Assembly: GCA_041651455.1 (NCBI GenBank)
Contig: JBAZJG010000009.1
Span: forward strand, 16,450-80,449
Reading direction: 5' to 3'
Source of the DNA: Candidatus Omnitrophota bacterium
Lineage (GTDB): Bacteria; Omnitrophota; Gorgyraeia; Pluralincolimonadales; Pluralincolimonadaceae
Length of the DNA: 64,000 nt
In this document: positions 1-60,867 of the stretch, piece by piece
How the letters are laid out: every line of letters begins with the position of its first letter
Numbering within the stretch: position 1 is the stretch's first letter
Translations under genes and position numbers: made by a program
Notes under the pieces: model-generated
Databases searched by the model: none
What the model was told of the DNA's origin: nothing
The model's input: only the letters and a program-made list of their open reading frames with translations

Positions 1-44
1 TTTATCCTTATTCCGGGTGCAAGATGAACGCTGAAGGACGGTTC

Positions 45-2921: not shown

Positions 2922-3814
2922 GAGGGAGCGTCTTTATGAGGAATATCTTCATCCTTTTAGTGATAGCAAGCGTCTCTGCGGCGCCGGCATCATTTGCGGC
3001 GGGCGCGGATAAATATATAATTAAAGTTCCCGGAGACTGCACTACGATAAAAGAAGCTTGCGAGAGATCGCTTCCCGGCGATACGATACTGCTCGGCGAG
3101 GGCGAGTTCACGGCAGAAAACGGGATAGTGTTCAAAGGAAATACGAAGCTCGCGGGGCAGGGTGCCGACAAGACGGTCCTGAAACTCGGACCAACGGGGC
3201 TAGGGATCATATCCATCAACGGGAACATTAATAATTTTGCACTGAAGGATATAACTGTTGAGGTAAACGGCTATCCGTTTATGGTAAACGGGCTGGACGG
3301 CCTGCTTATTAAGAACTGCGTTTTCCGCGGAAAGAACCTCTCTACATGTCTTGAGATCAGCTCGGTCAGAAATGCGCAGATATTAAATTGCAATGTTGTG
3401 AACGGTGGTTACGGGCTGCAACTCTGGGGAGGCCCTATAGAACTTACTGTCAGGAACTGTATATTTTATAATAATAGAGTGGGAATCGACGTTCCTCGGC
3501 CTCCGATAATGGCAAATACCAGGGATTGGCCGAAAGAAGAAGTTGAAAAATACTGGCAGAGGCCGCGCGAAGATGTCCGCCTTGAGCTTGAATATAATGT
3601 TTTCTGGAATATAAAGGATTTCATAGATTGCAAGAAAGGCGCCAAAGACATAATGTCTGACCCCAGGTTCGCGAATCCTTCAAAGGACGATTATCACATC
3701 AAGGATAACTCCCCGTGTATCGATGCCGGCGATCCCGACAAGAAGTATGACGATCCGGACGGCTCGCGCAACGACATCGGTGCATTTCCTTCCGGCGGCA
3801 AGAAGAGGAAATGA
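2918..3814 (+). CDS. Secreted right-handed parallel beta-helix (pectin-lyase-fold) protein
   Basis: Signal peptide MRNIFILLVIASVSAAPASFAAG. Repetitive N/G/V/I-rich beta-helix rungs (NGNINNFALKDITVEVNG..., NCNVVNGGYGLQLWGG, NNRVGIDV). Overlaps the upstream gene by 4 nt. Confidence 0.5.
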   Translation: MRGSVFMRNIFILLVIASVSAAPASFAAGADKYIIKVPGDCTTIKEACERSLPGDTILLGEGEFTAENGIVFKGNTKLAGQGADKTVLKLGPTGLGIISINGNINNFALKDITVEVNGYPFMVNGLDGLLIKNCVFRGKNLSTCLEISSVRNAQILNCNVVNGGYGLQLWGGPIELTVRNCIFYNNRVGIDVPRPPIMANTRDWPKEEVEKYWQRPREDVRLELEYNVFWNIKDFIDCKKGAKDIMSDPRFANPSKDDYHIKDNSPCIDAGDPDKKYDDPDGSRNDIGAFPSGGKKRK

Positions 3815-6312
3815 CCATGTTAAGGAAGAAAAGGGGCGTCGCGCTTATAATAACGGTGGGCATGTTGTCGCTTATGGCGATACTTGCGACGTCTTTTGCC
3901 TACAATATGATGTTTGACCTCAAGGGATCGGTTAACCATGTATTCAAGCTGAAAGCCAAGAACGCAGCCGATGCCGGCATAGCCCTCGCGATTGCCTATA
4001 TGAGGAACCTCGCCATAACGGATTTTAACGCCACACCGACGGCATCATGTGATTGGGGTTATACAAACGCGTCGAGTCCGTCTTTCGATGCGCGCGACGG
4101 GACTGTGAACAATTCCACAAGCGGCCTTTTTGGGAATGTCGGCAGGAACAGTATAGCCGTATACTCGCTGAAAGTGGTTGACACCAATGCTCAGATAAAC
4201 GTCAATGACACAAACCCGAACCTCAGGGATATCCTAGGCAATCTCACGGAGGTTCTCGGCCTCGCGAGGGCGGACGGAGAAGCTATCGCCGACAACGCTA
4301 ACAGGCCGTTCGCGACGAAGGAAGAGGTGATGACCTCGACAGGATGGACAGCTGCGAAATATGCCGTGATCAGGGATTATATTGCCGTGAACGGTTATTT
4401 CGACGAAAACAGCGAGGATTCTACCGCACCGGTCCCTCTGGGGCCAGGCAGTTACCAGAGGAAGTCGCCGGTAAATATTAATACCGCGAGCTCCGAGGTC
4501 CTTCAGGCTGTCTTAAGGGGAGTGATCACCGACCAGCAAGCGGCGGCGCTTGCGGCCGCGATCATTGCCCAGCGCAACACCGTGCCGTTCAGGGGATGGA
4601 ATGCCGCAACAGCGGCAGGCGGTTTTGACGATTTTATCGATAACGTTTCCATAACGCCTGCGCTCGGTTTAAGCGACAGGGCTAATGTCAAGGATAACGC
4701 CAATCCGAACAGGATAAAGCCCTCGACAAGCACCACGGATTTCTGTTTTAACCCGGGCGGATTCTTTGAGATAACATCCACTGGAACGACGGGCGTTGAT
4801 GCCAATTCGGACGGGGACCTTTCGGATATCATCGACATGGTATCGGCTAAGCAGGAGACCGTCGTCATCGCCAGGATATACGAGGTCCTGAACTATACGA
4901 CAAAAGAGCAGTTCCGCGGGGAGGATGCCAATTATAACGGTGTCTTGGACCCAGGCGAGGATAAAAACGGCAACGGTATCCTTGAACTGCCTGTTTTTTC
5001 AAGGGTGACATGGCTGAATTCATGCCCCGTACTGTCAAACGAAGACCAGGGCCTTGTATATGCCGCGAACTATTCGACGATCCCCAATTCACTGAAACTC
5101 GGTTATTGGGATGGTTTCGACGAAGACAACGACAATGTCAGCAAGAACGGATACAGTTGGTCGAACTGGCAGCAGCAGAACGGGGTGTTGAACATATCCG
5201 ACAGCGACGCTGACGGCGAATGCGAGATGTGGGGATCGGGTTGGCCGAAGTTCGCGCTGGCGGATATCAGCAAGTGGACATTCGGAGGTACTTTCTCCTT
5301 TCGCGTATCTCTAAGGCCTTCCCCGGGCGGCGATGGATGGGAAGATTCCGGGCATATCGATTTTTCGTGGGCAGGGCAGGTTAAAGGTAAACTGTGGACG
5401 CAGAATTGGGGTTTCCAATACTCTCCAAGGAGGGATATTACCCGGCCGGGATGGACCGTGGCTAACGATTCTGCCACAAGCGAGCCCTCATCGGCAAGGG
5501 AGGGAAAGGATTTTGCTGACAGCAAGGTACTGCTCCACATGTGGAAAAACAGCCCCGCCCTGAGGAACGAGCGAACCTACAACCTTGGGTACCTGTATGG
5601 ATTAAGCGATCCTCAGATTAACCACTATTTCGATTATACGGCAACGTCTGGCGACCAGGGGGCGGAGCAGTTCCACGGCGTATGCCCCGTAAGGGAGACC
5701 CTGAAACTCGTCGTTAGTAACGCGCAGAGCCCCAATTACCGCGTCTATCTAGCCGTAGGGCAGGGTTGGCACAGGTATTATAATTTCAGTAACGGATGGT
5801 TCCTTAGCAGCGTAGGTTTCAGCCCGACGACTACCGGTTATGTGATGATACCGTTCCATGCCGACGCGTCGAACGAGCTTAAGCGCGACAGGTACGGTTT
5901 CTGGACAATAACCAACAATGACATAAACAGCTGGCAGCTTACGCAATGGTATCCCGTTCTTTACGGGAATAACGCTTCTCCGCAATGGGACGAACTGAGG
6001 ATAATATCCCCTGACGGGACATATCGCTGTCCGACCTTCATGGCGGGGGAGAACGTCAGGTGGGGGACGATATCCTGGACGGTGACGGTGCCTTCAACCG
6101 CTAACGCCTCATCTGAACAGGTTTCGATGCAGGTTGACACCGGCAGCGGCGCGGCAGCGGTGTCGAAAGACGGCCCGATAGGAGGCGTTTCGGGAGGCGC
6201 GGCCTTTATCGCGTTGCTTTCCAGCATTAACGCCAATTTCACGGAAACACCGGTCCTCGAAGACGTAACGTTGACTTATCTTCCGCCGGTTGAGATCGTA
6301 TATTGCAAATAG
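3811..6312 (+). CDS. Giant GspK-like minor pseudopilin, paralog 2 (833 aa)
   Basis: N-terminus KRGVALIITVGMLSLMAILATSFA. SPVNINTASSEVLQAVL is an HhH (GspK/ComEA-like) motif. Shares FRGEDANYNGVLDPGED and VTWLNSCP with the paralog at 7668. ATGA overlap with the upstream gene. Confidence 0.6.
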   Translation: MTMLRKKRGVALIITVGMLSLMAILATSFAYNMMFDLKGSVNHVFKLKAKNAADAGIALAIAYMRNLAITDFNATPTASCDWGYTNASSPSFDARDGTVNNSTSGLFGNVGRNSIAVYSLKVVDTNAQINVNDTNPNLRDILGNLTEVLGLARADGEAIADNANRPFATKEEVMTSTGWTAAKYAVIRDYIAVNGYFDENSEDSTAPVPLGPGSYQRKSPVNINTASSEVLQAVLRGVITDQQAAALAAAIIAQRNTVPFRGWNAATAAGGFDDFIDNVSITPALGLSDRANVKDNANPNRIKPSTSTTDFCFNPGGFFEITSTGTTGVDANSDGDLSDIIDMVSAKQETVVIARIYEVLNYTTKEQFRGEDANYNGVLDPGEDKNGNGILELPVFSRVTWLNSCPVLSNEDQGLVYAANYSTIPNSLKLGYWDGFDEDNDNVSKNGYSWSNWQQQNGVLNISDSDADGECEMWGSGWPKFALADISKWTFGGTFSFRVSLRPSPGGDGWEDSGHIDFSWAGQVKGKLWTQNWGFQYSPRRDITRPGWTVANDSATSEPSSAREGKDFADSKVLLHMWKNSPALRNERTYNLGYLYGLSDPQINHYFDYTATSGDQGAEQFHGVCPVRETLKLVVSNAQSPNYRVYLAVGQGWHRYYNFSNGWFLSSVGFSPTTTGYVMIPFHADASNELKRDRYGFWTITNNDINSWQLTQWYPVLYGNNASPQWDELRIISPDGTYRCPTFMAGENVRWGTISWTVTVPSTANASSEQVSMQVDTGSGAAAVSKDGPIGGVSGGAAFIALLSSINANFTETPVLEDVTLTYLPPVEIVYCK

Positions 6313-7514
6313 GAGAAGAGATGCGGGGACTTAAAAATTTGGCCTTCGTTTTGTTGTTATCTGCCGTTATCTTGTGCCTGGGCGAGGCGCAGGCGGATAT
6401 TATTGAGTTGAAGGAGGCGGGGGAAAAGATAGACGGGAAGATAATCGAGGAAAGCGACACTCATGTGACCGTGAAACTCAAGACGGGGGGAAAGAGCACC
6501 TTTCCCAAAGCGTGGATAAAGAACATAAAGAAAGCGGAGATACCGGAAGAGGAACTTTATACGAAGCAGGACGTATACCTTTCGAAGCTCAAGATGCTTG
6601 ACCCGAATGATGCCGAAGCGCAGTTAAGCATCGCCAAGTGGTGCTTTGATAATGCCACCGCGGACAACGGGCTCTTTGAAATGGCCGACAGGCACTATAA
6701 GGCCGCGAAAGAGTTGGACCCGAAATTTGCCGAAAAAGGCGGCAAGGAGCTTGCCGCTGCACAGGAGAAAGAGGCAGAAAAACTGTTTTCCGTAGCGGAA
6801 ACCGAATATAAGCTGGGCGAATATTTTAAGGCCGAACAGATGGCGATATCGGTGATTTCGCTTTACCCGGATTCCTCTTTTGCGGGAAAAGCCAGGGGGC
6901 TTATAGCGAAGATCTGGGGTAATGCCAGGGCGCCGAAGATATTCGATAACCCGCAGAACCTGCCCGAGATCGTATTTACGGTTGAAGAGATGCAATCAGT
7001 GCTTTCCCATATGGGCACCGAAGAGCGCAAGCAGGCGTATTTCATGAAGTGCCTTGATCGCGGTATAGATTACGAGGAGCGGGCGGAGGAGGTCGATAAA
7101 GACAGGAAGGGCGGGTATTATATGGCAGCGATATCATGTTACGATGTCGTTTCGGGTTCAGCCGCAGGCCAAGTGAAGAAATCCGCCGACTTCAAGATGC
7201 AAGGCTCATTAAAAAAATATTTTGACGGTAAACCGGAGCCGTTCAGCGATGCACGTTACGCGCTGATGGCCGGATATATTCTAAAGATACAGGACCCGTC
7301 TTATATAGAAAAGCTTACCGTCCAATATTCCAAGCTGGGCGACGAGTTGTTTAAGAAAGCGAAGAGGATGAAGCAGCCTGAGAAATCAGAAAAAGCCAAA
7401 ACGGCGTATTTTTGCTTCTCGATCGTAAACAATTATTCAAAAGACGAAATGATAAGGCAGGATGCCTTCGAGAAAATGATAGAATGCCAGCGCCTTGAGA
7501 GAGCGCGCAAGTAG
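6303..7514 (+). CDS. Secreted partner protein of unknown function, paralog A. The probable start is at 6321.
   Basis: Signal peptide MRGLKNLAFVLLLSAVILCLGEAQA. Paralogous to 10255..11457, with the same C-terminus (E/V)CQRLERARK and a shared KQPEK...AYFC(F/Y)SI block. No family recognised. Confidence 0.45.
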   Translation: MQIGEEMRGLKNLAFVLLLSAVILCLGEAQADIIELKEAGEKIDGKIIEESDTHVTVKLKTGGKSTFPKAWIKNIKKAEIPEEELYTKQDVYLSKLKMLDPNDAEAQLSIAKWCFDNATADNGLFEMADRHYKAAKELDPKFAEKGGKELAAAQEKEAEKLFSVAETEYKLGEYFKAEQMAISVISLYPDSSFAGKARGLIAKIWGNARAPKIFDNPQNLPEIVFTVEEMQSVLSHMGTEERKQAYFMKCLDRGIDYEERAEEVDKDRKGGYYMAAISCYDVVSGSAAGQVKKSADFKMQGSLKKYFDGKPEPFSDARYALMAGYILKIQDPSYIEKLTVQYSKLGDELFKKAKRMKQPEKSEKAKTAYFCFSIVNNYSKDEMIRQDAFEKMIECQRLERARK

Positions 7515-7575: not shown

Positions 7576-7667
7576 TTAATAAAATAAGAAAACCGATAAA
7601 AGAAGAATTATTTTTTTTGAGCAAAAATGCCCCCGTGGGCATTCAATCAAACCATAGGGTTGAAGCA

Positions 7668-10247
7668 ATGAATAGCAGTAACAGGAAGGGTGTCGCTCTC
7701 ATCATAACGGTAGGGATCCTTGCGCTCCTGGCTATGATTGCGACCTCTTTCGCGTATAATATGATGGTTGACCTCAAGGACGCCGCCAATTATGTATTGA
7801 AGATGAAGGCAAAGAACGCGGCTGAAGCGGGGGTAAACCTTTCGATAGCACACCTCAGGATGCTTGCCACAAGCGATTTCAATGCAGTCCCTACAACCGC
7901 ATGCGATTGGGCATATACGAGTTCCACGCAGCCGTCATTCGACGGCCGCGACGGCACAGCAGGCAATTCAACGAGCGGATTGCTGGGCGATGTCGGCAGG
8001 GGGCATATCGCCGTGTGTTCGTTGAGGGTTACCGACACCAATTCACAGATAAACATAAACGACACCAACCCGAACCTGAATGTCATCCTTGGCAATCTCG
8101 GGACCATTTTGGCCATTCCGGGATGGGCACAGGCGAATGCGGACAGCATGGTCTCCGGAAGGCCTGCGGGCGGTTATGCGACCAAGGAAGGGATAGTCGA
8201 ATATATGCCGGGCGCCGACCTGACGGCAAAGAGGGCTAATTATGCCCTTATAAGGGACTTCGTGACCGTCAACAGCTATATAGACCAATACAGCGAGGAC
8301 GCGGCCGCCCCGTTGCTTACCAGTAATAATTACCAGAGCAAGTCGCCGGTCAATATCAACACGGCAAGGAGGGAGGTATTGCGCGCGGTCCTGCGCCCGC
8401 TTGTCAGCACGGATGTGAACGCGGCTCAGGTAGCCAACGCGATAGTCACCGCGAGGACAATGGTCTCCCCGTTCCGGAGCTGGAACGGGACTGCGGCACA
8501 GGGAGGTTTCAATGCTTTTATAGACAACATAAATCCGACCATACTGAACAATCCGCAGAAGGAGGCCATCAAGAATAATTTCAACCCGAACAAGGTCAAA
8601 CAGGGCACATATACGACGGATTTCTGTTTCCACCCGGGCGGTCTATACGAGATCGTCTCGACCGGCACGGTCGGATTAGACAATAATTCGGACGGCGCGG
8701 TTGAGGATGTCAAGGCAAGGCAGGAGCTCACCGCGGTCGCGAGGATATACAGCATCCTTAATTATACGGCAAAGGAGCAGTTCCGCGGCGAGGACGCGAA
8801 CTATAACGGCATTTTGGACGCGGGCGAGGACGCGAACAGCAACGGCGCAATCGACAGCCCGACGTTCCAGAATGTGACATGGATGAATTCATGCCCGGTG
8901 GTCTCGACGGAAGGCGACAGCGTCAAATATCCCGCGGTCGGCGGTTATACGGCAGTTCCGAATTCCATCAAGCTCGGAGTTTGGGATAATTTTGACGAGG
9001 ACAATTACGATACGAACGGAGACGGAGTGGTCGAGAACGGCTTCAGTGTCTGGGCGTGGACAAAATTGTCCGGCGGGCTGTCGACAAGAGAAATAAGAGA
9101 TGCCGATGCCGACGGCGATATGGAGATTTATGGTACCGGAGACTATTCGGGGTCCCCGTGGATTTACCCTAAATTCCAATTAAGGCCGGACTGGGTATTC
9201 GGAAAAAGGTTCTCGCTTAGGGCCTTTCAGATCCCGAATGTAGACGGGGACGGAATAGACGATGGCGGTCATATAGATTTCACTAGTTTCGCCGCCGGCA
9301 CCACATATGGATCCTTGCTGATGATGAGATTTGCATATAACTATCCGGGAGGCAGGGATATGACCAGGCCTCCTGCGTCAGTAATATGGGATGATTCTGC
9401 CACAGCTGCCGGTAATGCAAAAAAAGGCAAGGATTTTCCCGATAGCAGCATCTTCCTGAAGATGAGTAACACCAGTATGCGTCTATACAGGCTGGGCGAC
9501 CTGTACGGTTATACAGACCAATTTACGGACCACTATAATTTTTGTACCGATCCTACAGCAGGTGCCGTTACTTTTTTTGAAGAGGGGATAGATAGGTATC
9601 ACGGGGTAATGCCGGAAATATATACTTTGAAACTTGCCGTGAGCCCCGATTTGTCGCCAAATTACCGGGTCTGGTTCGCGGTCGGGAACATAAATACCGC
9701 CGAACAATATGACTATCATAACGGTACATATACCGGGTTTATAGCGTGTTCAGCTCCGTCCGCTAATTTTATGGCAGTTCCGATACATACCAGTTCGCGC
9801 ATGTCTTATGATAGGTATGACTGTCACGATATAGCTTGCCCCAGCAATACCTGGAATATCAGCGCATGGTACCTGACGCTTTACGGGCAGCATTCCTCCA
9901 CAACATGGGATGAGGTAAGGGTCATACCCGATACCGGGTTTTACCAGTCGTCCGCATTTGCGGCATCGTTACTTAACGGCGGTAATCCCGTAATATGGGG
10001 TACGGCTTCATGGACTATTAGCATACCTTCCACCGCTAGCCCGGCAAGTGAAATATGTAACGTACAAACGGATATCGGAAGCGGAATGGTGAATGCTGCA
10101 TATAACGGGGCAATAGGGGGGTCCTCAAACTCAATCTACTATAAGATAAATTTATCCTCGATCGACACGGATTGCAGCGAGACGCCGGTCTTCGAGGACA
10201 TGACTATAACTTATCTACCCAGGGTAAGCATATTATATCAGAGGTAA
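7668..10247 (+). CDS. Giant GspK-like minor pseudopilin, paralog 3. The ORF track begins at a TTG at 7617, but the start is more likely the ATG at 7668.
   Basis: N-terminus RKGVALIITVGILALLAMIATSFA. SPVNINTARREVLRAVL is an HhH motif. VTWMNSCP motif present. A 7-bp hairpin (7626-7643) and a T8 tract lie between 7617 and 7668, so the 5' end is probably untranslated. Confidence 0.6.
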   Translation: MNSSNRKGVALIITVGILALLAMIATSFAYNMMVDLKDAANYVLKMKAKNAAEAGVNLSIAHLRMLATSDFNAVPTTACDWAYTSSTQPSFDGRDGTAGNSTSGLLGDVGRGHIAVCSLRVTDTNSQININDTNPNLNVILGNLGTILAIPGWAQANADSMVSGRPAGGYATKEGIVEYMPGADLTAKRANYALIRDFVTVNSYIDQYSEDAAAPLLTSNNYQSKSPVNINTARREVLRAVLRPLVSTDVNAAQVANAIVTARTMVSPFRSWNGTAAQGGFNAFIDNINPTILNNPQKEAIKNNFNPNKVKQGTYTTDFCFHPGGLYEIVSTGTVGLDNNSDGAVEDVKARQELTAVARIYSILNYTAKEQFRGEDANYNGILDAGEDANSNGAIDSPTFQNVTWMNSCPVVSTEGDSVKYPAVGGYTAVPNSIKLGVWDNFDEDNYDTNGDGVVENGFSVWAWTKLSGGLSTREIRDADADGDMEIYGTGDYSGSPWIYPKFQLRPDWVFGKRFSLRAFQIPNVDGDGIDDGGHIDFTSFAAGTTYGSLLMMRFAYNYPGGRDMTRPPASVIWDDSATAAGNAKKGKDFPDSSIFLKMSNTSMRLYRLGDLYGYTDQFTDHYNFCTDPTAGAVTFFEEGIDRYHGVMPEIYTLKLAVSPDLSPNYRVWFAVGNINTAEQYDYHNGTYTGFIACSAPSANFMAVPIHTSSRMSYDRYDCHDIACPSNTWNISAWYLTLYGQHSSTTWDEVRVIPDTGFYQSSAFAASLLNGGNPVIWGTASWTISIPSTASPASEICNVQTDIGSGMVNAAYNGAIGGSSNSIYYKINLSSIDTDCSETPVFEDMTITYLPRVSILYQR

Positions 10248-10254
10248 TAAAGGA

Positions 10255-11457
10255 ATGAACAGAGCGAGAATACATAAAGTTTGGATATTCATATTGGCTT
10301 ATGCCGCAGCATCGGCTTGGGCCGTAGTCCGGGCGGATGATGTAATCCTAAAAGAGAGCGGACGTGTCATTGTCGGCAGGATACTCGGAGAAAAAGACGG
10401 GATGCTTACCGTAAAGATGACTAAAGGCGGTACCTGCGTTCTCCCGAGGGATTGGATAAAGCAGATAATAAAGAAAGATATTGCCGACGAAGAGCTTTTT
10501 ACCAAAGGTGATTTATATCGGCAGAAGCTGAAAGACATCGATCCGGAATCCGCGGAAGACCATCTGTCGCTTGCCGATTGGTGCCTTAAGAACGGAACTC
10601 CGGAAAACGGAATGCTCTTTGCCGCCGAATCCCATTTTAATATTGCGATGCAGATTGATCCGGACTCCGCAAAACGCGGATCGGCAGAACTTCTAAAGGC
10701 AAGGGAGAAGACTGCCGAGAAGTCCTACTCTATAGCCGTGATAGAGTATGATAACGGAGAATACATTAAATCAGAAACCGAAGCACTATCGCTTATTTCC
10801 GCGTATGGTGAGACAAGATATGCATTAAAGGCTAAGGACTTGCTTGTCAAAATATGGGGCAAGGACAGGGCAGCCGCGTTACTGGAACCTAAAGATGATT
10901 TGCTTCCGGGAATTGTATATACAAAGGAAGACTTGCAGTCTGTTCTTTCAAACTTCCAAAATGAGGAGCAGGCAGAGCTGTATTTTTTGAAATGTATAAG
11001 AAAAGCGAAAGATTGCGAGCAGAGGAGCGAGGAAGTCCCTGTAGGCAAGAGGGCAGGTTATTACAGGATAGGCATTGACTGCTACAGAAATGTTTTGTCA
11101 AGCGTAAAGCCTGAGGTAAGGGCCATTGCAGATTTAAATATGCAGGTATTGCTTAAGAAATATTTTGTCGACCCGCCGGCATTGTACAGTGATTATTATT
11201 TCTCTCTTGCATCCAATATGATGCTGTTAATAAAGGACCAGCAACTCGTTCAGGATATAAGCACGCGGTACTCGGAGACAGGAGACGGATTATTCAAGAA
11301 GGCAAGAAGGCAAAAGCAGCCCGAGAAGGGCAAGAACGCAATGGCCGCATATTTCTGTTATTCCATAGCAAATAATTTTTCTAAGGACGGGAAGATAAGG
11401 GAGAATGCTATTGAGAATATGGTCGAATGCCAGCGCCTGGAGAGAGCACGCAAGTAG
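10255..11457 (+). CDS. Secreted partner protein, paralog B
   Basis: Signal peptide MNRARIHKVWIFILAYAAASAWA. Colinear with 6303..7514, including the C-terminal VECQRLERARK. Confidence 0.45.
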   Translation: MNRARIHKVWIFILAYAAASAWAVVRADDVILKESGRVIVGRILGEKDGMLTVKMTKGGTCVLPRDWIKQIIKKDIADEELFTKGDLYRQKLKDIDPESAEDHLSLADWCLKNGTPENGMLFAAESHFNIAMQIDPDSAKRGSAELLKAREKTAEKSYSIAVIEYDNGEYIKSETEALSLISAYGETRYALKAKDLLVKIWGKDRAAALLEPKDDLLPGIVYTKEDLQSVLSNFQNEEQAELYFLKCIRKAKDCEQRSEEVPVGKRAGYYRIGIDCYRNVLSSVKPEVRAIADLNMQVLLKKYFVDPPALYSDYYFSLASNMMLLIKDQQLVQDISTRYSETGDGLFKKARRQKQPEKGKNAMAAYFCYSIANNFSKDGKIRENAIENMVECQRLERARK

Positions 11458-11533: not shown

Positions 11534-13132
11534 ATGGGAAAACGTGCTCTTGGAATCGATATAGGCGCAGGCTCAGTCAAGCTCGTAGAGCTTGAGAAGA
11601 CATCCGAAGGCGTGCAACTCCTTCGGGCAAAGTTTTTTGACCTCACTCAGCACCCCGACCAGGAGAAACGCGAAGCCCTCGTAAGGGAAGGTCTCGAAGG
11701 GCTCCTCAAGACAGAAAAGATCAGAAGCGGCAATACTGCAATATCCCTCTCAGGCCAATCAGTCTTCATCAGGTTCCTTAAGCTCCCCAAGATACAAAAA
11801 GGCAAAGTAGACAAGATAATAAAATACGAGGCCCAGCAGCAGGTTCCGTTCCCCCTTGATAAGATAACCTGGGACCACCAGATATTCCATAGCAGTGCCG
11901 GCCCGGAAGAGGATGTGCTCTTTGTCGCCGCCAAGAAGGAGCTTGTCGAGGCCACGTTATTGAATTTTTCGAGGACCGGCCTCAACGTCGAGATCGTCGA
12001 CGTGAGCCCGCTCTCACTACTCAACGCGATCACCTACAACGAGCCTCTCGCCAAAGGCGTCATAATAGATATAGGAGCGAAGGCGACGAACCTGATAGTC
12101 CTCGACGCAAAGGGCTTCTGGGTGCGCTCGGTGCTTGTGGCAGGCGATGAAATGACGCACGCGATAGCGTCGAAAATGAACATACCGTTCGACAAGGCCG
12201 AAGAACTCAAGCGCAAGGAAGGCATGGTCGTCCCGTCGGACAACCTCGTGCCGTCGAACATAAGCTCTACGGGCCAGGAGCTGGTAAACATACTTAATAC
12301 AGTTGTCTCCGACATGGTCTCGTCGATAATACAATCCCTGGAATTTTATAAGTCAAAGCACGGCAGGGACGTAGTCTTTGGAGAGGTAATACTCTCCGGC
12401 GGCGGTTCGAAGCTGAAGGGCATAGAGGACTACCTTGCAAAAGGCCTAGGAATGCAGATAAGGCGCGCGAACCTCGGCCAGAAGATAAAATGCCCTTCAA
12501 ACCTCAGGGTAGACATAGATTTCCAGTCGAGGTTCGGGGCCGCGATAGGCCTCGGCCTGCGCCTGCTCCAGAGATGCCCCACGAATATAGACCTGCTGCC
12601 TGCCGAAAGGAAAGAGGACAGGGATTTCAAGAAGGAAAGGATCTGGATAATGGCGGCAGGGGTCATGCTGTCGCTGATACCTTTCACGATAGCGATGAAT
12701 ATATGGTTCCAGTCCGGTGCGCTCAGGAAACAGATAATGTTTCTCGACGACATATTGGCGCAATATGACGACGTGAAAGCGAAAATAGCGTTGCTGAAAG
12801 ACGATATCAAGAAGGGCGAACAGAAGATAAAACCGCTCGAAGGCGTCGCTATAAGGAGATCGTTGCTTTTGGAGGCGCTCCTTGAAGTCGAGAAGCTGCT
12901 CCCGAAAGAGACGTGGTTGACCTCGCTTAGCGAAGAGAAGGATTGGGTCTCTATAGAAGGCAGGACTTCAGAGAACCTTCTCACTATAACGGAGTTCAAG
13001 AACAAGCTTTCTGCGTCATCGTTGTTCGATTCGGTTGAAATAATCTACGCTAGCCTTCCGAAGGATTCCGAGGAAGGTATTGGCCAGTTGAGGGATTTTT
13101 CGATCAAGTTCAAACTGAAGGCAGGACAGTAG
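11534..13132 (+). CDS. pilMN: PilM-PilN fusion protein (type IV pilus / T2SS inner-membrane assembly)
   Basis: The N-terminus ALGIDIGAGSVKLVEL is the actin-like PilM signature. The C-terminal third has a TM helix (IWIMAAGVMLSLIPFTIAMNIWF) followed by a coiled coil, as in PilN. Confidence 0.65.
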   Translation: MGKRALGIDIGAGSVKLVELEKTSEGVQLLRAKFFDLTQHPDQEKREALVREGLEGLLKTEKIRSGNTAISLSGQSVFIRFLKLPKIQKGKVDKIIKYEAQQQVPFPLDKITWDHQIFHSSAGPEEDVLFVAAKKELVEATLLNFSRTGLNVEIVDVSPLSLLNAITYNEPLAKGVIIDIGAKATNLIVLDAKGFWVRSVLVAGDEMTHAIASKMNIPFDKAEELKRKEGMVVPSDNLVPSNISSTGQELVNILNTVVSDMVSSIIQSLEFYKSKHGRDVVFGEVILSGGGSKLKGIEDYLAKGLGMQIRRANLGQKIKCPSNLRVDIDFQSRFGAAIGLGLRLLQRCPTNIDLLPAERKEDRDFKKERIWIMAAGVMLSLIPFTIAMNIWFQSGALRKQIMFLDDILAQYDDVKAKIALLKDDIKKGEQKIKPLEGVAIRRSLLLEALLEVEKLLPKETWLTSLSEEKDWVSIEGRTSENLLTITEFKNKLSASSLFDSVEIIYASLPKDSEEGIGQLRDFSIKFKLKAGQ

Positions 13133-13134
13133 AT

Positions 13135-13899
13135 ATGGCAAAGGGCATTAAGCCGCATGTAATGACGAAACTTGTGCTGGGGCTCGTGTTCCTCGGGTCC
13201 CTTTGTGTCGCCATATTTGTCGCTTTCGACAGGTCTTCCCTCGAGAGATCCATACAGGATAAGACCGGCGAACTCGAGAGTTATAAGGATCAGGGGCTTG
13301 CCGTCCTTAATAGGGATAGGCTCAGGCTCGAAAAACAGCTTAAGGCCCTTAAGGACGTGAACGACCAATTGAGTGCCGGGCTCTTCTCGAACCCGAAATC
13401 AAAGATGCCGAAGGAAGCCGGCGATGCGTTAAAGTTCAAGGAAGAACTTTACAGGGTCCAGAACAAGATAAAGGAAGAAGGGATGCCGATAGATTTCCAG
13501 TTCCCGTTCTGGCTCGGTTTCGAAAGATATGAGCACGATATTCCCGTTTCAGCCGATCTGCCTGTCAGGGCTAAGCAGCTCGAGATAATAAAAGAGATCA
13601 TGGATTTGATGTTGCAGGCGAAGGTTCCTGAGGTGTCGTCAATAGAGTTCCTCGAATCGAAGAACGTGACTTATGACGGCGGCAAGGAGCCGATGTTCAG
13701 GGAGTTCCCTGTAAGGATGTCATTCAAATGCAAGAACGACAACCTTCTCGGTTTCTTGTATAAGATATATGTTTCCGGTATACCTTTCAGAGTGGACATG
13801 CTCAAGATCAAGGTCCTTAATGAGGAGACCGGCGAGAAGGGCGAGCTTAAAGTGGAAGCCGTTATAGTGGCTGCAATACAGCAGGCGGATAAGATATGA
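13135..13899 (+). CDS. PilO-like bitopic membrane protein
   Basis: N-terminal TM helix (LVLGLVFLGSLCVAIFVAF), a coiled-coil segment and a periplasmic domain. Its position right after pilMN matches PilO. Confidence 0.4.
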   Translation: MAKGIKPHVMTKLVLGLVFLGSLCVAIFVAFDRSSLERSIQDKTGELESYKDQGLAVLNRDRLRLEKQLKALKDVNDQLSAGLFSNPKSKMPKEAGDALKFKEELYRVQNKIKEEGMPIDFQFPFWLGFERYEHDIPVSADLPVRAKQLEIIKEIMDLMLQAKVPEVSSIEFLESKNVTYDGGKEPMFREFPVRMSFKCKNDNLLGFLYKIYVSGIPFRVDMLKIKVLNEETGEKGELKVEAVIVAAIQQADKI

Positions 13900-14567
13900 A
13901 AGGCATCTATAAGATAGCCGCGATCGCATTGTTCATATTATGGTTTATACTGCTATGGTTGGCGCCGGTACTGTTTACGCCTAAGGATTTCTCGGTCCCG
14001 ACAGGCGAGGATAGCATAATTAAGTCAGATGATATTACGGTTGACGCGTCTAATGCGTATTCTACGCTTATAGAAAGCATAAAGTCCCCGTTTGCCGCTT
14101 CAAGATACCAGCAGCTCCTAGACAGGAACCTGTTCATCAAGCCGGAAACTCCTCCGCCGGTTTTTACTCCGGACAAGCTTAAAGTTGTGTCCATAGGGGC
14201 AACAAACCTGCCGTTCATATATACGGGGTTCATACAGAAGCAGGACGGCACTATAATAGGACAGATTAACTGGTCGGGGAAGACATATTTCGCGAAGAAG
14301 GGCGAGAAGTTCAAGGATTATAAGGTGCTCGAGATAAATTCGAAACAGATTAGGGCCGAGAACAAGGATGGACAGCTGACACTGGAATTCAAGAAACCCG
14401 TGAAGAGCAAAGAATTGATTGGAAAGCTCTTCAATTCCATGGATGACAAGACATATGAAGTGAAAAAGGGAGATGATATAAATGGTTATAAAGTTCTTGA
14501 CATTAAGGCCGATAGTGTGATAATATACGGCCAGGATCAAGAGTGGGTCATTAAAAAGGGGAGATGA
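13896..14567 (+). CDS. PilP-like or periplasmic assembly component (uncertain)
   Basis: N-terminal TM helix / signal anchor (IAAIALFILWFILLWLAPVLF). The assignment rests on operon position only. Confidence 0.3.
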   Translation: MKGIYKIAAIALFILWFILLWLAPVLFTPKDFSVPTGEDSIIKSDDITVDASNAYSTLIESIKSPFAASRYQQLLDRNLFIKPETPPPVFTPDKLKVVSIGATNLPFIYTGFIQKQDGTIIGQINWSGKTYFAKKGEKFKDYKVLEINSKQIRAENKDGQLTLEFKKPVKSKELIGKLFNSMDDKTYEVKKGDDINGYKVLDIKADSVIIYGQDQEWVIKKGR

Positions 14568-14572
14568 TATAA

Positions 14573-15691
14573 ATGGATATTACCAATGGGGTTAAAAGAA
14601 CGGTTCCGCCATTTTTTTGTATCTTTCTGACTTTCAATTTGTTCTTTATTATCTCATTGTATTATTTTGCCGGGGACGAAGCCTACGCTGCCACGGGAGC
14701 CGGATATTCTAATGATTCCCTTGAGGCAAAAATAATAGCCGAGGACCTGGCAAAGCAGAAGAAAGTAGAAAAGAAATCCCTCGTTGCAGACCTCTTTAAG
14801 CAGGCAAAAGCCTCATACGACGCGAAAGATTACGAGACCTCCCAGAAGATGTTCGAAAGAGTCGTCCAATTAGACCCGAAGAACAAGCAAGCCTCGCACT
14901 ATGTGGAATTGTGCAAGGAAGGCATGGCTAAGGATGTCCCCGCATCAATATCGGGCACCCTTATGAAGAGGGGTAAAGCAAATTACGCGAACAAACAGTA
15001 TTCGGCCGCAATAGCGGATTTTGAAACTGCGTTGGCCGCGAACCCTAATGACTCCGAAGCCAGGTTGTGGCTCGAGAAGGCCCATAAGGGAGAAGAACTG
15101 TATTCAAGGGAAAAATCGACCAAAGAAGAGCGAAAAGATATAGTTAATGATAGGAAGGTTTTGAAGGAAGAGAAGGACACGGCAGAGCAGGCAGCCCTGC
15201 GAGACGTCGACAAGGGTTGGCTGCCTCCGGCTGCGCCGGTAAAGGAAGAGCTTCAGGTTGAAGAGGTTATATCGGAATCCGAGAGGGCCGAACAGGAGGC
15301 CAAGAAGGCGCTTATCGATAAGATGCGCAGCGTGATGGTCCCTGCGATTTCAGTCACGGACGCTGATATCCAGGACCTGATACGTCAGCTTATGGAGATG
15401 ACCGGCGTCACGATAGTCGTGGATGAAAGGGAGCTTGCAGCCCTCACGAAGGATGCCCCTATAAAGATATCATTGAGCACTGCAACGCCAATGCCGTTGC
15501 TGGACGTGCTTGATATTGCGTTCAAGACGACGCAGTTGGGCTATAAAGTAGAGCCAAATTACGTATACGTAACGAGCAAGCGCATGAGGGATATAGAAGA
15601 CCTCGTGACAAGGACGTATAAGCTTAAATACCCGGAGCGCAAGACGAGGGAAGTTAAACTGAAGGAATTTGAGGTCAAAGAGGCGGAATAA
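14573..15691 (+). CDS. TPR-repeat protein with a C-terminal secretin N0 (STN-like) domain
   Basis: An N-terminal hydrophobic anchor, then TPR-like repeats (AKASYDAKDYETSQKMFERVVQLDPKN..., GKANYANKQYSAAIADFETALAANPND). The C-terminal ISVTDADIQDLIRQLMEMTGVTIVVDE...PLLDVLDIAFKTTQLGYKVEPNYVYVTS matches the GspD/PilQ N0 fold pattern. Confidence 0.5.
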   Translation: MDITNGVKRTVPPFFCIFLTFNLFFIISLYYFAGDEAYAATGAGYSNDSLEAKIIAEDLAKQKKVEKKSLVADLFKQAKASYDAKDYETSQKMFERVVQLDPKNKQASHYVELCKEGMAKDVPASISGTLMKRGKANYANKQYSAAIADFETALAANPNDSEARLWLEKAHKGEELYSREKSTKEERKDIVNDRKVLKEEKDTAEQAALRDVDKGWLPPAAPVKEELQVEEVISESERAEQEAKKALIDKMRSVMVPAISVTDADIQDLIRQLMEMTGVTIVVDERELAALTKDAPIKISLSTATPMPLLDVLDIAFKTTQLGYKVEPNYVYVTSKRMRDIEDLVTRTYKLKYPERKTREVKLKEFEVKEAE

Positions 15692-15693
15692 AT

Positions 15694-16809
15694 ATGGTAA
15701 AAAATCTCTGTCTTTTTGCGCTGGCGTCCCTTCTAATACTCCCCCGTATGGTGTCTGCAGAAGACATCAACGTCGCGAATTACCTGAAAGACAGCCTTCC
15801 TCCGCAGGAAGGCCGGAAGATAACGTATAACCAGTCATCAAAACTCCTTACCGTTACGGACACCAAGTCGAACCATAACCTGATAAAGAACCTTATAAAA
15901 CAGTTCGAGATAGGGCCAAAACAGGTCATGATCGAGACAAGGTTCGTAGAGGTCGATGTTACCGATCTCATGGAGATCGGTATTGAGTGGGATTTCTACA
16001 AACAGGGCCATCCTAGCGGCAAAGGTTTCAGGGGCATGCGTTGGGGCGATCCTACTCCCGGCGCCGATTATCAGGGCGTCCATTGGAATAACGACCTTGA
16101 ATCCACGTTCCCTATAACAGGGAATTTTGCCGGGCAGCTGGCGCTCTATAAAGTGCTGGAATCCGGTGATTATATAGTATCTAACCTCAGGGCTTTGGCT
16201 GAGCAGGGCAAGGTGAACCTGTTGTCATCCCCGAAGATAACGACGGTCGCCGGCCAAATGGCGAATATCCAGGTAGTCAGGACCCAGCCGTATGTTTCGG
16301 ACTTTACGCTTGAAAATATCGGTACGGCGGAAGACCCTATATGGAGCTATAAGCTAACTCTTGCCGAGAAGCCGATAGGTATATTTCTCGAGGCCACTCC
16401 TTATGTGACCGAAGGCTCGAACACGATAACGCTTGACCTCCATCCCGAGGTCAGCATATTGAGAGATCAGGTGCGGATATCGACGCTTACGACAAGCGGT
16501 GAGACCGGTGAACTCGGTAACGTTACCGCCGACGACTCGATACCGCTTATCCCGGAAGACCTCGGATGGCCTGTTGTGGATGTCAGGACTACGCAAACCA
16601 GCGTCGTAGTCGACAGCGGTCAGACGATAGTCCTTGGCGGGATGATCAAGGATGAAGAGCAGGTGATCAAGAGAAAAGTCCCGGTATTGGGGGATATACC
16701 GCTGCTTGGGAAGGCTTTCCAGTATGATTACAAAGAACAGCGCAAGAAGAACCTCCTTATATTCATCACGGCCAGCATCATCAATGCCAGAGGGGAGGTA
16801 ATAAGGTGA
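15694..16809 (+). CDS. Short secretin (GspD/PilQ family), paralog 1
   Basis: Signal peptide. VMIETRFVEV (start of the N3 / secretin domain). C-terminal KVPVLGDIPLLGKAFQY...KNLLIFITASII is the canonical secretin motif. Confidence 0.75.
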   Translation: MVKNLCLFALASLLILPRMVSAEDINVANYLKDSLPPQEGRKITYNQSSKLLTVTDTKSNHNLIKNLIKQFEIGPKQVMIETRFVEVDVTDLMEIGIEWDFYKQGHPSGKGFRGMRWGDPTPGADYQGVHWNNDLESTFPITGNFAGQLALYKVLESGDYIVSNLRALAEQGKVNLLSSPKITTVAGQMANIQVVRTQPYVSDFTLENIGTAEDPIWSYKLTLAEKPIGIFLEATPYVTEGSNTITLDLHPEVSILRDQVRISTLTTSGETGELGNVTADDSIPLIPEDLGWPVVDVRTTQTSVVVDSGQTIVLGGMIKDEEQVIKRKVPVLGDIPLLGKAFQYDYKEQRKKNLLIFITASIINARGEVIR

Positions 16810-17927
16810 AAAATATGATAAGAACGTTCCTATATATTCCGGTAATATCTCTGATAGTAATGTCGGCAGCGTATATTCCCGTGTGCCATGCGGCGGAAGG
16901 GGAAGAGACGGTCGCCGATACCTCAGTGTCAGGCGGGGAAGCTTCTACCATACAGGAATACCTGCAGCAGGCGCTTCCGGAGAATCCCGAGAGGAAGATA
17001 GTCCTGGACGAGGTGACGGGCGTGCTTACGGTTACGGATACACCGAGCAACCAGACGCTGGCAAAGGACCTTATAATGCTCTGGGACACGGGCCCGAGCC
17101 AGGTAAAGATCCAGGCGAGGTTTGTCGAGATCGAGATGACGGATATCGAGGAACTCGGCGTGGAGTGGTGGTGGTCGAGGGAGGACAGGCATTCGGAAAA
17201 GAACGGACGCTTTAGCAATATGGGCGTGAACATGTCCTCTCCGTCGATAAGCGAAGACGCGGCTGATGCGGCGATATTCGGCATGGCCAATGAGACGTCA
17301 GGTTTAGGCCTTAAGCTGGGCAGGTTCACCCAGGCCGGAAGCGTCATACAGGTATACCTGAAGGCGCTGCAGGAAGAAGGCAAGGCAAACCTTTTATCAT
17401 CCCCCACGGTAACGACCCTTTCAGGACAGATGGCGAACATACAGTTGGCTAATATAGTCCCCTATGCGTCGGATTTCACGAGGACGAATATAGGCAGCCC
17501 GGAGTTCCCGGTAATGGTAGAGGTTTATAAGGTGGCCGAAAAGGTCACAGGGATAATGCTTGAAGTCACTCCTACGGTCGCCGGCGACAGCCAGGTGGTC
17601 ACTATGGATATACATCCCGAGGTAAGCGTCCTTGTGGACCAGCTTCCTATCACGGCTTCAACGGAGTTCCCGGACGGCCTCGGATACCCGGTCATAGATA
17701 CGAGGACCGCACAGACATCGGTCGTTATAAAGAGCGGCGAGACTGTTGTTCTTGGCGGCCTTATCAGGGAAGACGAGAATGTGACGAAGAAGAAGGTCCC
17801 GTTCCTCGGAGATGTGCCGTTGATCGGAAATCTTTTCAAGACGCATCATACGAACAGCGTAAAGAAGAATCTCGTGATATTCCTCACGGCGACAGTACTT
17901 AATTCCAGAGGAGAGCCGGTACTATGA
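16806..17927 (+). CDS. Short secretin (GspD/PilQ family), paralog 2
   Basis: VKIQARFVEIEM, then KVPFLGDVPLIGNLFKTH...KNLVIFLTATVL. Colinear with the preceding gene. Confidence 0.75.
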   Translation: MKNMIRTFLYIPVISLIVMSAAYIPVCHAAEGEETVADTSVSGGEASTIQEYLQQALPENPERKIVLDEVTGVLTVTDTPSNQTLAKDLIMLWDTGPSQVKIQARFVEIEMTDIEELGVEWWWSREDRHSEKNGRFSNMGVNMSSPSISEDAADAAIFGMANETSGLGLKLGRFTQAGSVIQVYLKALQEEGKANLLSSPTVTTLSGQMANIQLANIVPYASDFTRTNIGSPEFPVMVEVYKVAEKVTGIMLEVTPTVAGDSQVVTMDIHPEVSVLVDQLPITASTEFPDGLGYPVIDTRTAQTSVVIKSGETVVLGGLIREDENVTKKKVPFLGDVPLIGNLFKTHHTNSVKKNLVIFLTATVLNSRGEPVL

Positions 17928-18247
17928 AACGCAAGCTTATAGTCGTGTCGGTGGTATTGGCCGCGGCGGTTGCCGCTTCTACGGTGTTCGCGCAGGTCAT
18001 AACAAAGACGAAGCCTTCTGGCGGCAAACAGAAGGATATAGTCCTTACGACGGCTGATATGAAGGACTCCTATAAGGTCGTCGGAATAGTATCGGCGCGC
18101 GGCGGAGAGGTGAATCTGGACGGTTTGAACGCAAAATTGAAGGATGCGGCCAGGGACCTGGGAGCCGATTGCGTCATAGGCATAAACTATTTCAACTATA
18201 GCGGTTATGTCTACGCTTATGGCACGGCAATAAAGCTCAAGGAATAG
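17924..18247 (+). CDS. Small exported protein (107 aa) ending the secretin operon, possibly a pilotin-like accessory
   Basis: Signal peptide MKRKLIVVSVVLAAAVAASTVFAQV. Function assumed from position only. Confidence 0.3.
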   Translation: MKRKLIVVSVVLAAAVAASTVFAQVITKTKPSGGKQKDIVLTTADMKDSYKVVGIVSARGGEVNLDGLNAKLKDAARDLGADCVIGINYFNYSGYVYAYGTAIKLKE

Positions 18248-60168: not shown

Positions 60169-60867
60169 ATGGAAGATATATCAATCATTAAGAAGACAGA
60201 GACTGCATTAGATGATTTAATAAATCTTTGGCGCAGACGTAAATTATTATGCATCATTGTCGTAGCAATAATCAGTACGCCGTTAATATATTCAGTTGTC
60301 ATAACATCACAAATGAAATCAAAACTTGAAAACGCAGAAAAAGCAAAAGAGAACGCTGAAAAGGCAAAAGATAAAGCTGAATTGCAGCTTGCTCCTTTTT
60401 TAGCAGCAGCAAATCAAGGGTTTCCAAATATTGACCCGGAAAAAAGGTTAGAATTGCTTCTATCTAAGCTCAACGATGCAGTCATAAATGTTCAGGATGC
60501 GGCTCGACGCATATCGTCAGAACGCAATATAAGTGCTGATTTGAAGTGTACTCTTATCGAGAATTTGAAGAAGATACAACCACTTGAGGTTAACGTTGTT
60601 AGTATTATCGGAGATGCAGAAACGTATTCACTTGCGGTGCAAATTAAAGATATATTTGAGGAAGCGGGATGGAAAGTCGAAGGCGTAGATCAGGCAACAT
60701 ATACTGTTCCACCAAAGCATCTTGTGCTTGTATTTGGAAAGAAAGCTACACCAGAGCTTGAAAGAGCCATCACTCCACTCGTTGATAGTTTTGGTTACCA
60801 GCGAAAAGCAGTGCTCGACGATATGATTGGAGAAAATGCTATGAGGATTATAGTCGGTTCAAAATAG
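60169..60867 (+). CDS. Membrane-anchored coiled-coil protein of unknown function (232 aa), AT-rich
   Basis: RBS ggaagga. TM helix LLCIIVVAIISTPLIYSVVI, followed by a KxxE-rich coiled coil (ENAEKAKENAEKAKDKAE). Sigma70-like TTGAAT ... TATAAT upstream at about 60060-60092. Confidence 0.45.
   Translation: MEDISIIKKTETALDDLINLWRRRKLLCIIVVAIISTPLIYSVVITSQMKSKLENAEKAKENAEKAKDKAELQLAPFLAAANQGFPNIDPEKRLELLLSKLNDAVINVQDAARRISSERNISADLKCTLIENLKKIQPLEVNVVSIIGDAETYSLAVQIKDIFEEAGWKVEGVDQATYTVPPKHLVLVFGKKATPELERAITPLVDSFGYQRKAVLDDMIGENAMRIIVGSK

Follow-up and report, generated by a model that had tools for sequence, protein, structure and literature searches.

Secretins are usually regarded as homo-oligomeric pores encoded by a single gene, with an N0 domain that is joined to the channel covalently. 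In a stretch of 64,000 nucleotides from a Candidatus Omnitrophota bacterium (assembly GCA_041651455.1, contig JBAZJG010000009.1, positions 16,450 to 80,449; hereafter the window), three consecutive open reading frames (ORFs) raise the question of whether a secretin can be assembled from separately encoded parts. An initial annotation, made from the sequence alone, had described these ORFs as a secretin split across three genes. These would encode a tetratricopeptide repeat (TPR) protein ending in an N0-like domain (here named TPR-N0), followed by two tandem secretins of about 370 aa, each holding a short N-domain and a secretin core (here named SecA and SecB). What has to be determined is what the three proteins contain, where an ancestral gene would have been divided and how the resulting parts may come together.

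The explanation considered best, and held to be probable as a whole, is that a gene encoding TPR, N0, N-domain and secretin core underwent fission, that its pore half was duplicated and that the front half re-attaches to the pore non-covalently. The genes would then encode the outer-membrane conduit of a machine resembling a type IV pilus (T4P) or type II secretion system (T2SS).

Domain content of the three proteins

The three ORFs were found at the positions and on the strand that had been assigned to them (Table 1). TPR-N0 and SecA are separated by a gap of 2 nt, SecA and SecB overlap by 4 nt, and SecB in turn overlaps by 4 nt with a small ORF (17924-18247).

Both SecA and SecB were identified as secretins. 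Using Pfam, Secretin_N was located at residues 20-77 and Secretin (PF00263) at residues 167-363 of SecA (E-value 2.5e-37), with the corresponding matches lying at residues 44-99 and 187-365 of SecB (E-value 3.6e-43). The two proteins share 42% identity over 352 aa (E-value 2e-92). Their best relatives in the PDB were T2SS GspD and T4P PilQ (phmmer, E-values down to 2e-28), and a Foldseek search with the AlphaFold2 (AF2) model of SecA returned PulD, GspD and PilQ at E-values of about 1e-16. Sequence and structural matches alike thus identify the C-terminal PF00263 domain, the part of secretins from which the double beta-barrel is built, as a secretin core. The secretin motifs quoted in the initial annotation are present, with the correction that SecB reads GDVPL and not GDIPL.

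The description of two proteins of about 370 aa with a short N-domain and a core was borne out by Pfam and can be refined, as the N-domain is incomplete. The AF2 model of SecA (57-sequence alignment; block-mean predicted local distance difference test (pLDDT) of approximately 77-84 in the N-domain) has the order H27-34, E42-46, E51-55 and H58-71 (H, helix; E, strand), followed by a beta-barrel. This is an alpha-beta-beta-alpha arrangement from which the first strand is absent, and a complete beta-alpha-beta-beta-alpha N-domain in cis was found in neither SecA nor SecB. No N0 was detected in the same chain (Pfam on both proteins, AF2 of SecA), this domain being borne by the upstream TPR protein, and neither an S-domain nor a lipobox was found in SecA or SecB.

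The hydrophobic N-terminal segment of TPR-N0 is likely to be a cleavable signal peptide, judging from its predicted cleavage motif, and the fused homologues described below carry ordinary signal peptides at the same position. No lipobox cysteine follows it in the window protein, nor in most of its relatives in the alignment.

Among the profiles proposed in the initial annotation, Secretin and Secretin_N gave clear matches to SecA and SecB, and STN gave a sub-threshold match to the TPR protein (residues 308-336, E-value 2.8e-3). GspD_N0 was likewise matched below threshold (residues 261-286, E-value 3.8e-3). Such weak matches recur across the family, with GspD_N0 found in 24/24 members and STN in 23/24 (best E-value 1.4e-6). 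A profile of the last ~128 residues, built from 24 members and searched against the PDB with E-values of up to 10 allowed, matched only the N0 of Pseudomonas aeruginosa XcpQ/GspD (E-value 5e-4), the alignment running from the start of N0.

The AF2 model of TPR-N0 (39-sequence alignment, mean pLDDT 75) begins with a hydrophobic helix at the N-terminus, continues with TPR helices and a helix of 55 residues, and has an N0 fold at residues 260-335, where block-mean pLDDT is 70-83. Its elements (E260-265, H266-277, E281-283, E298-302, H309-318, E322-326, E331-335, with a short helix between strands 2 and 3) agree with the N0 topology of beta-alpha-beta-beta-alpha-beta-beta. In the top 50 Foldseek matches of this model in the PDB, the only ones that were not TPR proteins were 4ar0 (PilQ N0; template modelling score 0.52 on the target), 5mp2_B (XcpQ; root-mean-square deviation 2.8 Å over 82 columns) and 3oss_D (GspD N0). 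Furthermore, phmmer related the N0 region of the window protein to that of five single-chain secretins (P0230, P0233, P0241, P0247 and P0254) at E-values of 3e-6 to 5e-4. Taken singly these lines are modest, and taken together with the fused relatives they make the assignment of the C-terminal domain as N0, as predicted from sequence and model, secure. The N0-like ending of the TPR protein given in the initial annotation is therefore upheld by family profile, weak Pfam matches across the family, AF2, Foldseek and fused homologues.

The TPR-N0 family comprises 76 clusters, nearly all of 365-378 aa, the named ones being from Candidatus Omnitrophota. Its most conserved parts in the alignment are N0, the strand and the tail that follow it, and not the TPRs. 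The initial annotation had likened these repeats to those of pilotins. TPR and N0 do lie in one protein, and the TPR module is not regarded as a pilotin that was fused to N0, as no lipobox is present and the module lies inside the secretin chain of fused relatives. In this secretin lineage, the N-terminal TPR module is ancestral.

Related N0 domains were also observed in other settings. A 399-aa protein (L039:197-1396) has a non-TPR N-terminal region followed by N0 and a tail as in TPR-N0 (…SKTYRLKYGIRNLRPIELTSL). On its 3.4-kb contig, a gene for the PolA 5'-3' exonuclease directly follows and no adjacent secretin gene is present. Four proteins of 440 to 1896 aa (P0207, P0209, P0219 and P0240) hold 3 to 7 tandem N0/STN-like repeats related to the N0 of the window.

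The break within the N-domain and single-chain relatives

More distant, fused relatives of the three proteins were identified by searching 1.8 billion representative proteins with the N0 and tail segment (phmmer/HMMER). The 68 matches were composed of split-type proteins, with N0 at the C-terminus, and single-chain secretins, with N0 in mid-chain. The single-chain relatives are the five named above and range from 707 to 924 aa. P0233 (893 aa) carries AMIN, TPR, N0 (residues 412-483), Secretin_N (539-587) and Secretin (704-884), and P0247 (707 aa; NCBI MFH0839317.1, Candidatus Omnitrophota) carries TPR, STN and Secretin. The genes for P0247 and P0233 lie right after PilMN and an Amuc_1100/PilO-like gene and right before PolA-(glycogen synthase)-CoaE-Rho, as the three genes do in the window. 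Each of these two loci has one secretin gene, and the small YbjQ-like ORF that follows SecB in the window is absent from both. P0254 shares with the window TPR-N0 a WLPP motif ahead of N0, and the series of TPR-N0 and then SecA or SecB aligns collinearly with P0233, P0247, P0254 and P0241.

Because single-chain homologues hold the same locus and align collinearly, the window genes can be read as halves of one secretin. The protein that the relatives encode as one chain has, by this sequence comparison, its front half in TPR-N0 and its back half, in duplicate, in SecA and SecB. The central claim of the initial annotation, that a secretin is split across genes, is in agreement with this. Fused secretins of Omnitrophota and related metagenomes resemble the window proteins in synteny and in domain order, including WLPP, N0, beta1 and the alpha-beta-beta-alpha unit. 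They differ in being one chain from a single secretin gene. Between beta1 and alpha1 they have a variable loop, and at this point the window genes are interrupted by a stop codon, a start codon and the sequence for a signal peptide.

The position of the break can be read from both sides. After N0, the fused proteins have a strand of the form xxT(R/K)xYxL, a variable loop, helix alpha1 with the motif I..L....WPEGSK(I/V), two strands and a helix. The loop between beta1 and alpha1 has as few as 5 residues in P0241, and in P0247 it is a low-complexity stretch of ~95. On the secretin side of the split, the Secretin_N match in SecA and SecB starts at profile position 9-14 of 69. Mature SecA starts two residues ahead of helix alpha1 (ED-INVANYLKDSLPPQEGRKI…), and mature SecB has a short variable acidic stretch and then helix alpha1. 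The mature N-termini start at alpha1 in all 28 orthologue pairs, 28 being the number of loci long enough to judge in a scan of one genome per GTDB species together with metagenome loci. On the TPR-N0 side, the window protein stops 19 residues after the strand LVTRTYKLKY, which aligns to the strand ahead of alpha1 in the fused homologues. The break in the gene thus falls within the N-domain, in its beta1-alpha1 loop.

The fit of the strand to the N-domain was examined by grafting. With the native strand placed on the SecA N-domain, the Secretin_N score rose from 29.4 to 37.8 bits and the match was extended to positions 1-69, in comparison to 29.3-30.8 bits for 11 shuffled or reversed strands, none of which reached position 1. 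The equivalent graft on SecB raised the score from 31.3 to 45.1 bits, versus 37.0 bits for one shuffled control.

Among proteins that are otherwise 31-35% identical, the strand and the tail that follows are as conserved as the N0 core, with T346, T348, Y349, L351 and Y353 of the strand and G354, R356 and L363 after it being invariant or nearly so. The tail, (G/P)xRKTRxVxLxEFE, is conserved only in split-type proteins, its place being taken by the variable loop in fused ones, and it is possibly an extra docking element, to judge by this pattern.

In other phyla, canonical secretins consist of one chain, which makes the split form the derived one. In neighbour-joining (NJ) trees, the fused secretins were outgroup to SecA and SecB in 200/200 bootstraps, which places the duplication, as far as sequence trees can tell, within the split-type lineage, either before or after fission. 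All trees were simple NJ trees of Kimura distances, with support values that are rough.

A further single chain was observed outside the usual operon context. P0208 (L037:210-1409; 399 aa) contains N0, the strand, a short loop and an N-domain (SVIDYLKAALPPQKGRKV) very close to that of SecA. Its secretin domain is a weak, partial PF00263 match (25 bits, E-value 1.6e-5) below the gathering score. The gene adjoins a VWA-domain gene and an AbiEii gene.

Conservation of the locus and proposed assembly of the channel

The scan of one genome per GTDB species yielded 30 loci, all of Omnitrophota type. The three-gene layout of the window, for which a search in related genomes had been advised, was recovered in every locus that could be judged, the order PilMN, PilO-like gene, PilP-position gene, TPR-N0, SecA, SecB being kept in 28/28, with PolA usually lying 0.1-4 kb beyond the small ORF. 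Ten GTDB records titled 'uncultured Planctomycetia bacterium' (L008, L014, L019, L020, L025-L027, L029, L033 and L034) contain the same locus, with identity to the window protein reaching 97%; their titles are probably in error.

In each locus, the first secretin had its best match to SecA and the second to SecB. Mean identity was 56% within A and 54% within B, versus 44% between A and B, and the split between A and B was recovered in 162/200 NJ bootstraps. From these comparisons, the secretins tend to fall into two orthologous clades of old origin, SecA and SecB.

The ratio of nonsynonymous to synonymous substitution (dN/dS) was estimated against relatives 65-87% identical at the protein level. 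Synonymous sites are saturated, so the ratios are approximate: 0.05 for TPR-N0, 0.08 for SecA, 0.08-0.13 for SecB, 0.09-0.12 for the small ORF and 0.05-0.08 for PolA. TPR-N0, SecA, SecB and the small ORF are under purifying selection, and none of them is decaying. Protein lengths are also kept (TPR-N0 ~365-378 aa, secretins mostly ~350-440 aa).

These results bear on the possibility that the split is an artefact or a product of decay, such as a frameshift, an assembly error or a pseudogene fragment beside a functional copy. The initial annotation had itself raised the prospect of relatives with a single long secretin and of a pseudogene or duplicate fragment among the three genes. In favour of such an origin, a single long gene does occupy the locus in related genomes. 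However, the three-gene structure, with a signal peptide for each protein, is present in 28 independently assembled genomes, and the low dN/dS, similar to that of PolA, and the conserved lengths are not those of decaying genes. An artefact is considered to have next to no likelihood, and since none of the window genes is a pseudogene, the long secretin of the relatives supports the split.

In the proposed course of events, the ancestral secretin would have been one chain with a signal peptide, TPR, N0, one N3-type domain and the secretin core. In the Omnitrophota clade of the window, its gene would have broken in the beta1-alpha1 loop, the C-terminal piece gaining a signal peptide of its own and being doubled in tandem to give SecA and SecB. 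All three proteins would be exported to the periplasm, with export and cleavage predicted from their N-termini, and SecA and SecB would form a gated beta-barrel pore in the outer membrane, where secretins of the GspD/PilQ superfamily assemble as rings of 12-17 subunits. TPR-N0 would re-attach non-covalently by inserting its beta1 strand and conserved tail into the incomplete alpha-beta-beta-alpha N-domain, so that strand beta1 may be donated in trans to the secretin N-domains. An N0 ring, extended by the TPR modules, would in this way be restored below the pore. In canonical T2SS and type IVa pili, N0 contacts the homology region (HR) domain of GspC/PilP in the inner-membrane platform. A separate N0 protein held by a beta-strand has a precedent, since BfpG, a separately encoded protein of N0 fold, is held on the periplasmic part of BfpB by beta-strand pairing at 17:17 (PMC12531336).

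A number of observations weigh against this proposal. The N0 of the window TPR-N0 scores 17.5-22 bits, below the gathering cut-offs of 27-28.4 (PF21305, PF07660). Its Foldseek matches to N0 structures have weak E-values (about 8e-3 to 2e-2), due to the full-length query being multi-domain and TPR matches dominating. In the AF2 model of isolated TPR-N0, residues 336-352, which include the proposed strand, are drawn as a helix, and block-mean pLDDT falls from ~83 to 59. When a profile of the grafted N-domains was searched against the PDB, alignments covered only beta2-beta3-alpha2, with scores no better than those of ungrafted domains. Monophyly of SecB was recovered in 117/200 bootstraps when the outgroup was included, which is moderate support. 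In addition, a link from N0 to the platform through the 223-aa protein at the PilP position would be by analogy only, because this protein has no detectable HR-domain signal, a search for the PilP/GspC HR domain having given no Pfam or PDB profile match.

TPR-N0 could instead be a pilotin-like assembly or targeting factor (compare PilF/PilW/TadD) that binds monomers transiently and is not a stable subunit of the channel. Its TPR repeats, the plausible need of SecA and SecB for targeting help, given their lack of an S-domain or lipobox, and the moderate AF2 confidence of the isolated tail are all compatible with this. Yet no lipobox cysteine follows its signal peptide, TPR and N0 are permanent parts of the chain in the orthologous fused proteins, and conservation peaks in N0, strand and tail rather than in the TPRs. 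A role of this kind is considered improbable.

As regards the pore itself, a single heteromeric ring of SecA and SecB, at which the initial annotation had hinted, is plausible and is given somewhat less than an even chance. In its favour, neither paralogue was found singly in any of the 28 loci, the genes lie side by side in every case, mostly with a 4-nt overlap that points to translational coupling and similar expression, one TPR-N0 gene and one PilMNOP platform set are shared between the two, and the very distant relative L040, described below, again has exactly two tandem secretins. To our knowledge, every solved secretin structure is a homo-oligomer, which weighs against a heteromer. Kazmierczak et al. 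are said to have found in 1994 that the pIV proteins of the phages f1 and IKe, whose divergence is similar to that between SecA and SecB, form mixed multimers upon co-expression, and mixed rings would on that account be physically possible. The more specific arrangement of an obligate hetero-ring (for example alternating, with even symmetry) onto which the N0 ring is clipped by the donated first beta-strand is rather unlikely.

SecA and SecB might equally form two separate homo-oligomeric pores for different substrates or conditions, for instance pilus extrusion on the one hand and protein secretion or DNA uptake on the other, with each pore docking TPR-N0 alone. This would be a case of ordinary subfunctionalisation, and it is credited with somewhat less than an even chance. 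All PDB matches of SecA and SecB are rings built from one protein species. Each paralogue retains an entire secretin core along with the N-domain common to both, so that either could in principle assemble alone, and the three different giant minor pilins encoded upstream hint at more than one fibre tip or substrate. The constant pairing of the genes and the single TPR-N0 and platform set described above argue against separate pores, as does a very distant relative (L040:6001-9932) with exactly two tandem copies. This locus encodes a TPR-N0 of 487 aa, two secretins of ~413 aa and PolA. Its secretins are 49% identical to each other and ~30% identical to SecA, SecB or the fused forms, which suggests an independent duplication or gene conversion, or that the signal of orthology has been lost. 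Given these two copies, selection may have favoured paired pore subunits on more than one occasion.

On the explanation preferred here, of fission, a duplicated pore half and re-attachment, the locus represents a natural experiment across a whole lineage, in which the covalent link to N0 was severed within a folded domain and the pore half came to exist in two copies, with all pieces nevertheless remaining under strong selection. If this is correct, coupling of N0 to the inner-membrane platform would need no covalent link, beta-strand complementation would be a natural means of holding an envelope-spanning machine together, and heteromeric secretin rings would become directly testable. It would also follow that what annotation pipelines report as a 'hypothetical TPR protein' and 'GspD' are one machine part. 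Should the hetero-ring and strand donation both hold, this would be a three-component secretin and the first natural heteromeric one, with split-domain complementation in an outer-membrane machine. These points also bear on how the largely uncultured Omnitrophota build a pilus-like apparatus.

Genomic context and comparison with known systems

The features of the locus are listed in Table 1.

Table 1. Features of the split secretin locus and its upstream genes, with positions in the window
Feature	Position	Strand	Description or evidence
Giant GspK/PilX-like minor pseudopilin 1	24-2921		965 aa; PA14 domain
Giant GspK/PilX-like minor pseudopilin 2	3811-6312		833 aa; T2SSK match
Giant GspK/PilX-like minor pseudopilin 3	7617-10247		876 aa
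PilM-PilN fusion	11534-13132	+	PilM_2 E-value 1.9e-34, PilN E-value 1.7e-8 (Pfam)
PilO/GspM-like gene	13135-13899	+	Orthologues are Pfam Amuc_1100
Bitopic 223-aa protein	13896-14567	+	PilP assignment by position only
TPR-N0	14573-15691	+	372 aa; signal peptide, ~3 TPRs, long helix, WLPP motif, N0, strand-beta1 tail
TPR-N0, N-terminal hydrophobic segment	14573-14692	+	Ends in conserved (A/V/S)-x-A (…EAYA|AT); sequence, alignment, AF2 helix 13-37
TPR-N0, TPR region	14711-15052	+	Residues ~47-160; TPR_2 E-value 2.8e-10, AF2 helical repeats, Foldseek TPR matches
TPR-N0, N0/STN-type domain	15338-15580	+	Residues 256-336; Pfam, profile search, AF2, Foldseek
TPR-N0, strand-beta1-like motif LVTRTYKLKY	15596-15631	+	Residues 342-353; conservation, alignment to fused homologues, graft scores
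TPR-N0, conserved C-terminal tail	15632-15688	+	(G/P)xRKTRxVxLxEFE; alignments of split versus fused proteins
SecA	15694-16809	+	371 aa; signal peptide 1-22, incomplete N3-type domain ~24-76, secretin core 167-363
SecB, SecA paralogue	16806-17927	+	373 aa; signal peptide 1-29, variable acidic N-terminal stretch, incomplete N-domain ~46-99, secretin core 187-365
Small secreted YbjQ/BhsA-like protein	17924-18247	+	107 aa; weak YbjQ_1 matches

Upstream of the platform genes, three giant minor pseudopilins lie in a row, and the pseudopilins of this operon context are GspG/GspH/GspK-like. The second and third are each followed by one of two paralogous proteins of ~400 aa (6303-7514 and 10255-11457), both ending in …CQRLERARK and neither with a Pfam match, and a beta-helix (NosD-like) protein is encoded at 2918-3814. 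The Amuc_1100 (PF28028) assignment of the PilO/GspM-like gene is a precomputed annotation of its orthologues in four loci (L001, L003, L035 and L036). This membership ties the operon to the family of the Akkermansia Amuc_1100 pilus-like gene cluster.

Downstream, the window continues with PolA, glycogen synthase, CoaE, Rho and RF-1. Of the split loci, 27/28 have an ORF of the type at 17924-18247, and L035 and L036, the two fused loci, lack one. For this reason the small YbjQ/BhsA-like gene appears to travel with the split arrangement. Weak YbjQ_1 matches were found in 21/21 members of its family, and the protein is possibly an accessory or targeting factor. Far downstream, between 58000 and 62000, the guanine-plus-cytosine content falls from ~0.57 to 0.45-0.47. 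This stretch contains a DUF3800 protein (58903-59829) and an ORF without a Pfam match (60169-60867), and may be a foreign island.

In a literature search of incomplete coverage, no split secretin of the T2SS/T4P class, no break within an N-domain and no tandem pore-half paralogues were found described, nor any of these features in Omnitrophota. Split secretin genes as such (in the Rhc type III secretion systems, T3SS) and free N0-like partners (in type IVb pili, T4bP) are already known. Compared with canonical GspD/PilQ (nearest structural matches PulD 6hcg; GspD 5zdh and 5wq7; PilQ 6w6m), the window shares the core, an N3-type domain, the N0 fold and the operon logic with PilM/N/O and pseudopilins. 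It differs in having N0 and strand beta1 on a separate polypeptide, with a TPR module N-terminal to N0, and in having a single N-domain (no N1 or N2), no S-domain and two pore-half paralogues. The TPR pilotins PilF/PilW/Tgl/TadD are likewise TPR proteins encoded beside a secretin, but these are outer-membrane lipoproteins without N0, whereas TPR-N0 has no lipobox and carries N0 and beta1.

In rhizobia and in the T3SS-2 of Pseudomonas syringae, the secretin is encoded as N- and C-terminal ORFs, RhcC1 (NolW) and RhcC2, in functional systems, the functional significance of this split being given as unknown (PMC3574062, PMC3973906). The likeness to the window holds at the level of ORFs carrying N- and C-terminal secretin parts. 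The Rhc genes belong to a T3SS cluster, are often far apart and differently regulated, and have no TPR module or described tandem pore-half paralogues. The window locus itself lies outside the type III secretion class, with its PilM/PilN, PilO-like and pseudopilin context and its best matches to T2SS/T4P secretins.

The free N0-like partners of T4bP secretins are BfpG, TcpQ, CofC and LngC; BfpG, which consists of one small domain, lies on the outside of the N3 ring, biogenesis depends on it, and BfpB retains an N0 of its own (PMC12531336). BfpG and TcpQ resemble TPR-N0 in being separately encoded proteins of N0 fold beside a secretin. In contrast to BfpG, which adds to a secretin, the multi-domain TPR-N0 of 372 aa would be the detached front half of one, to be joined to SecA and SecB, which have no N0 of their own.

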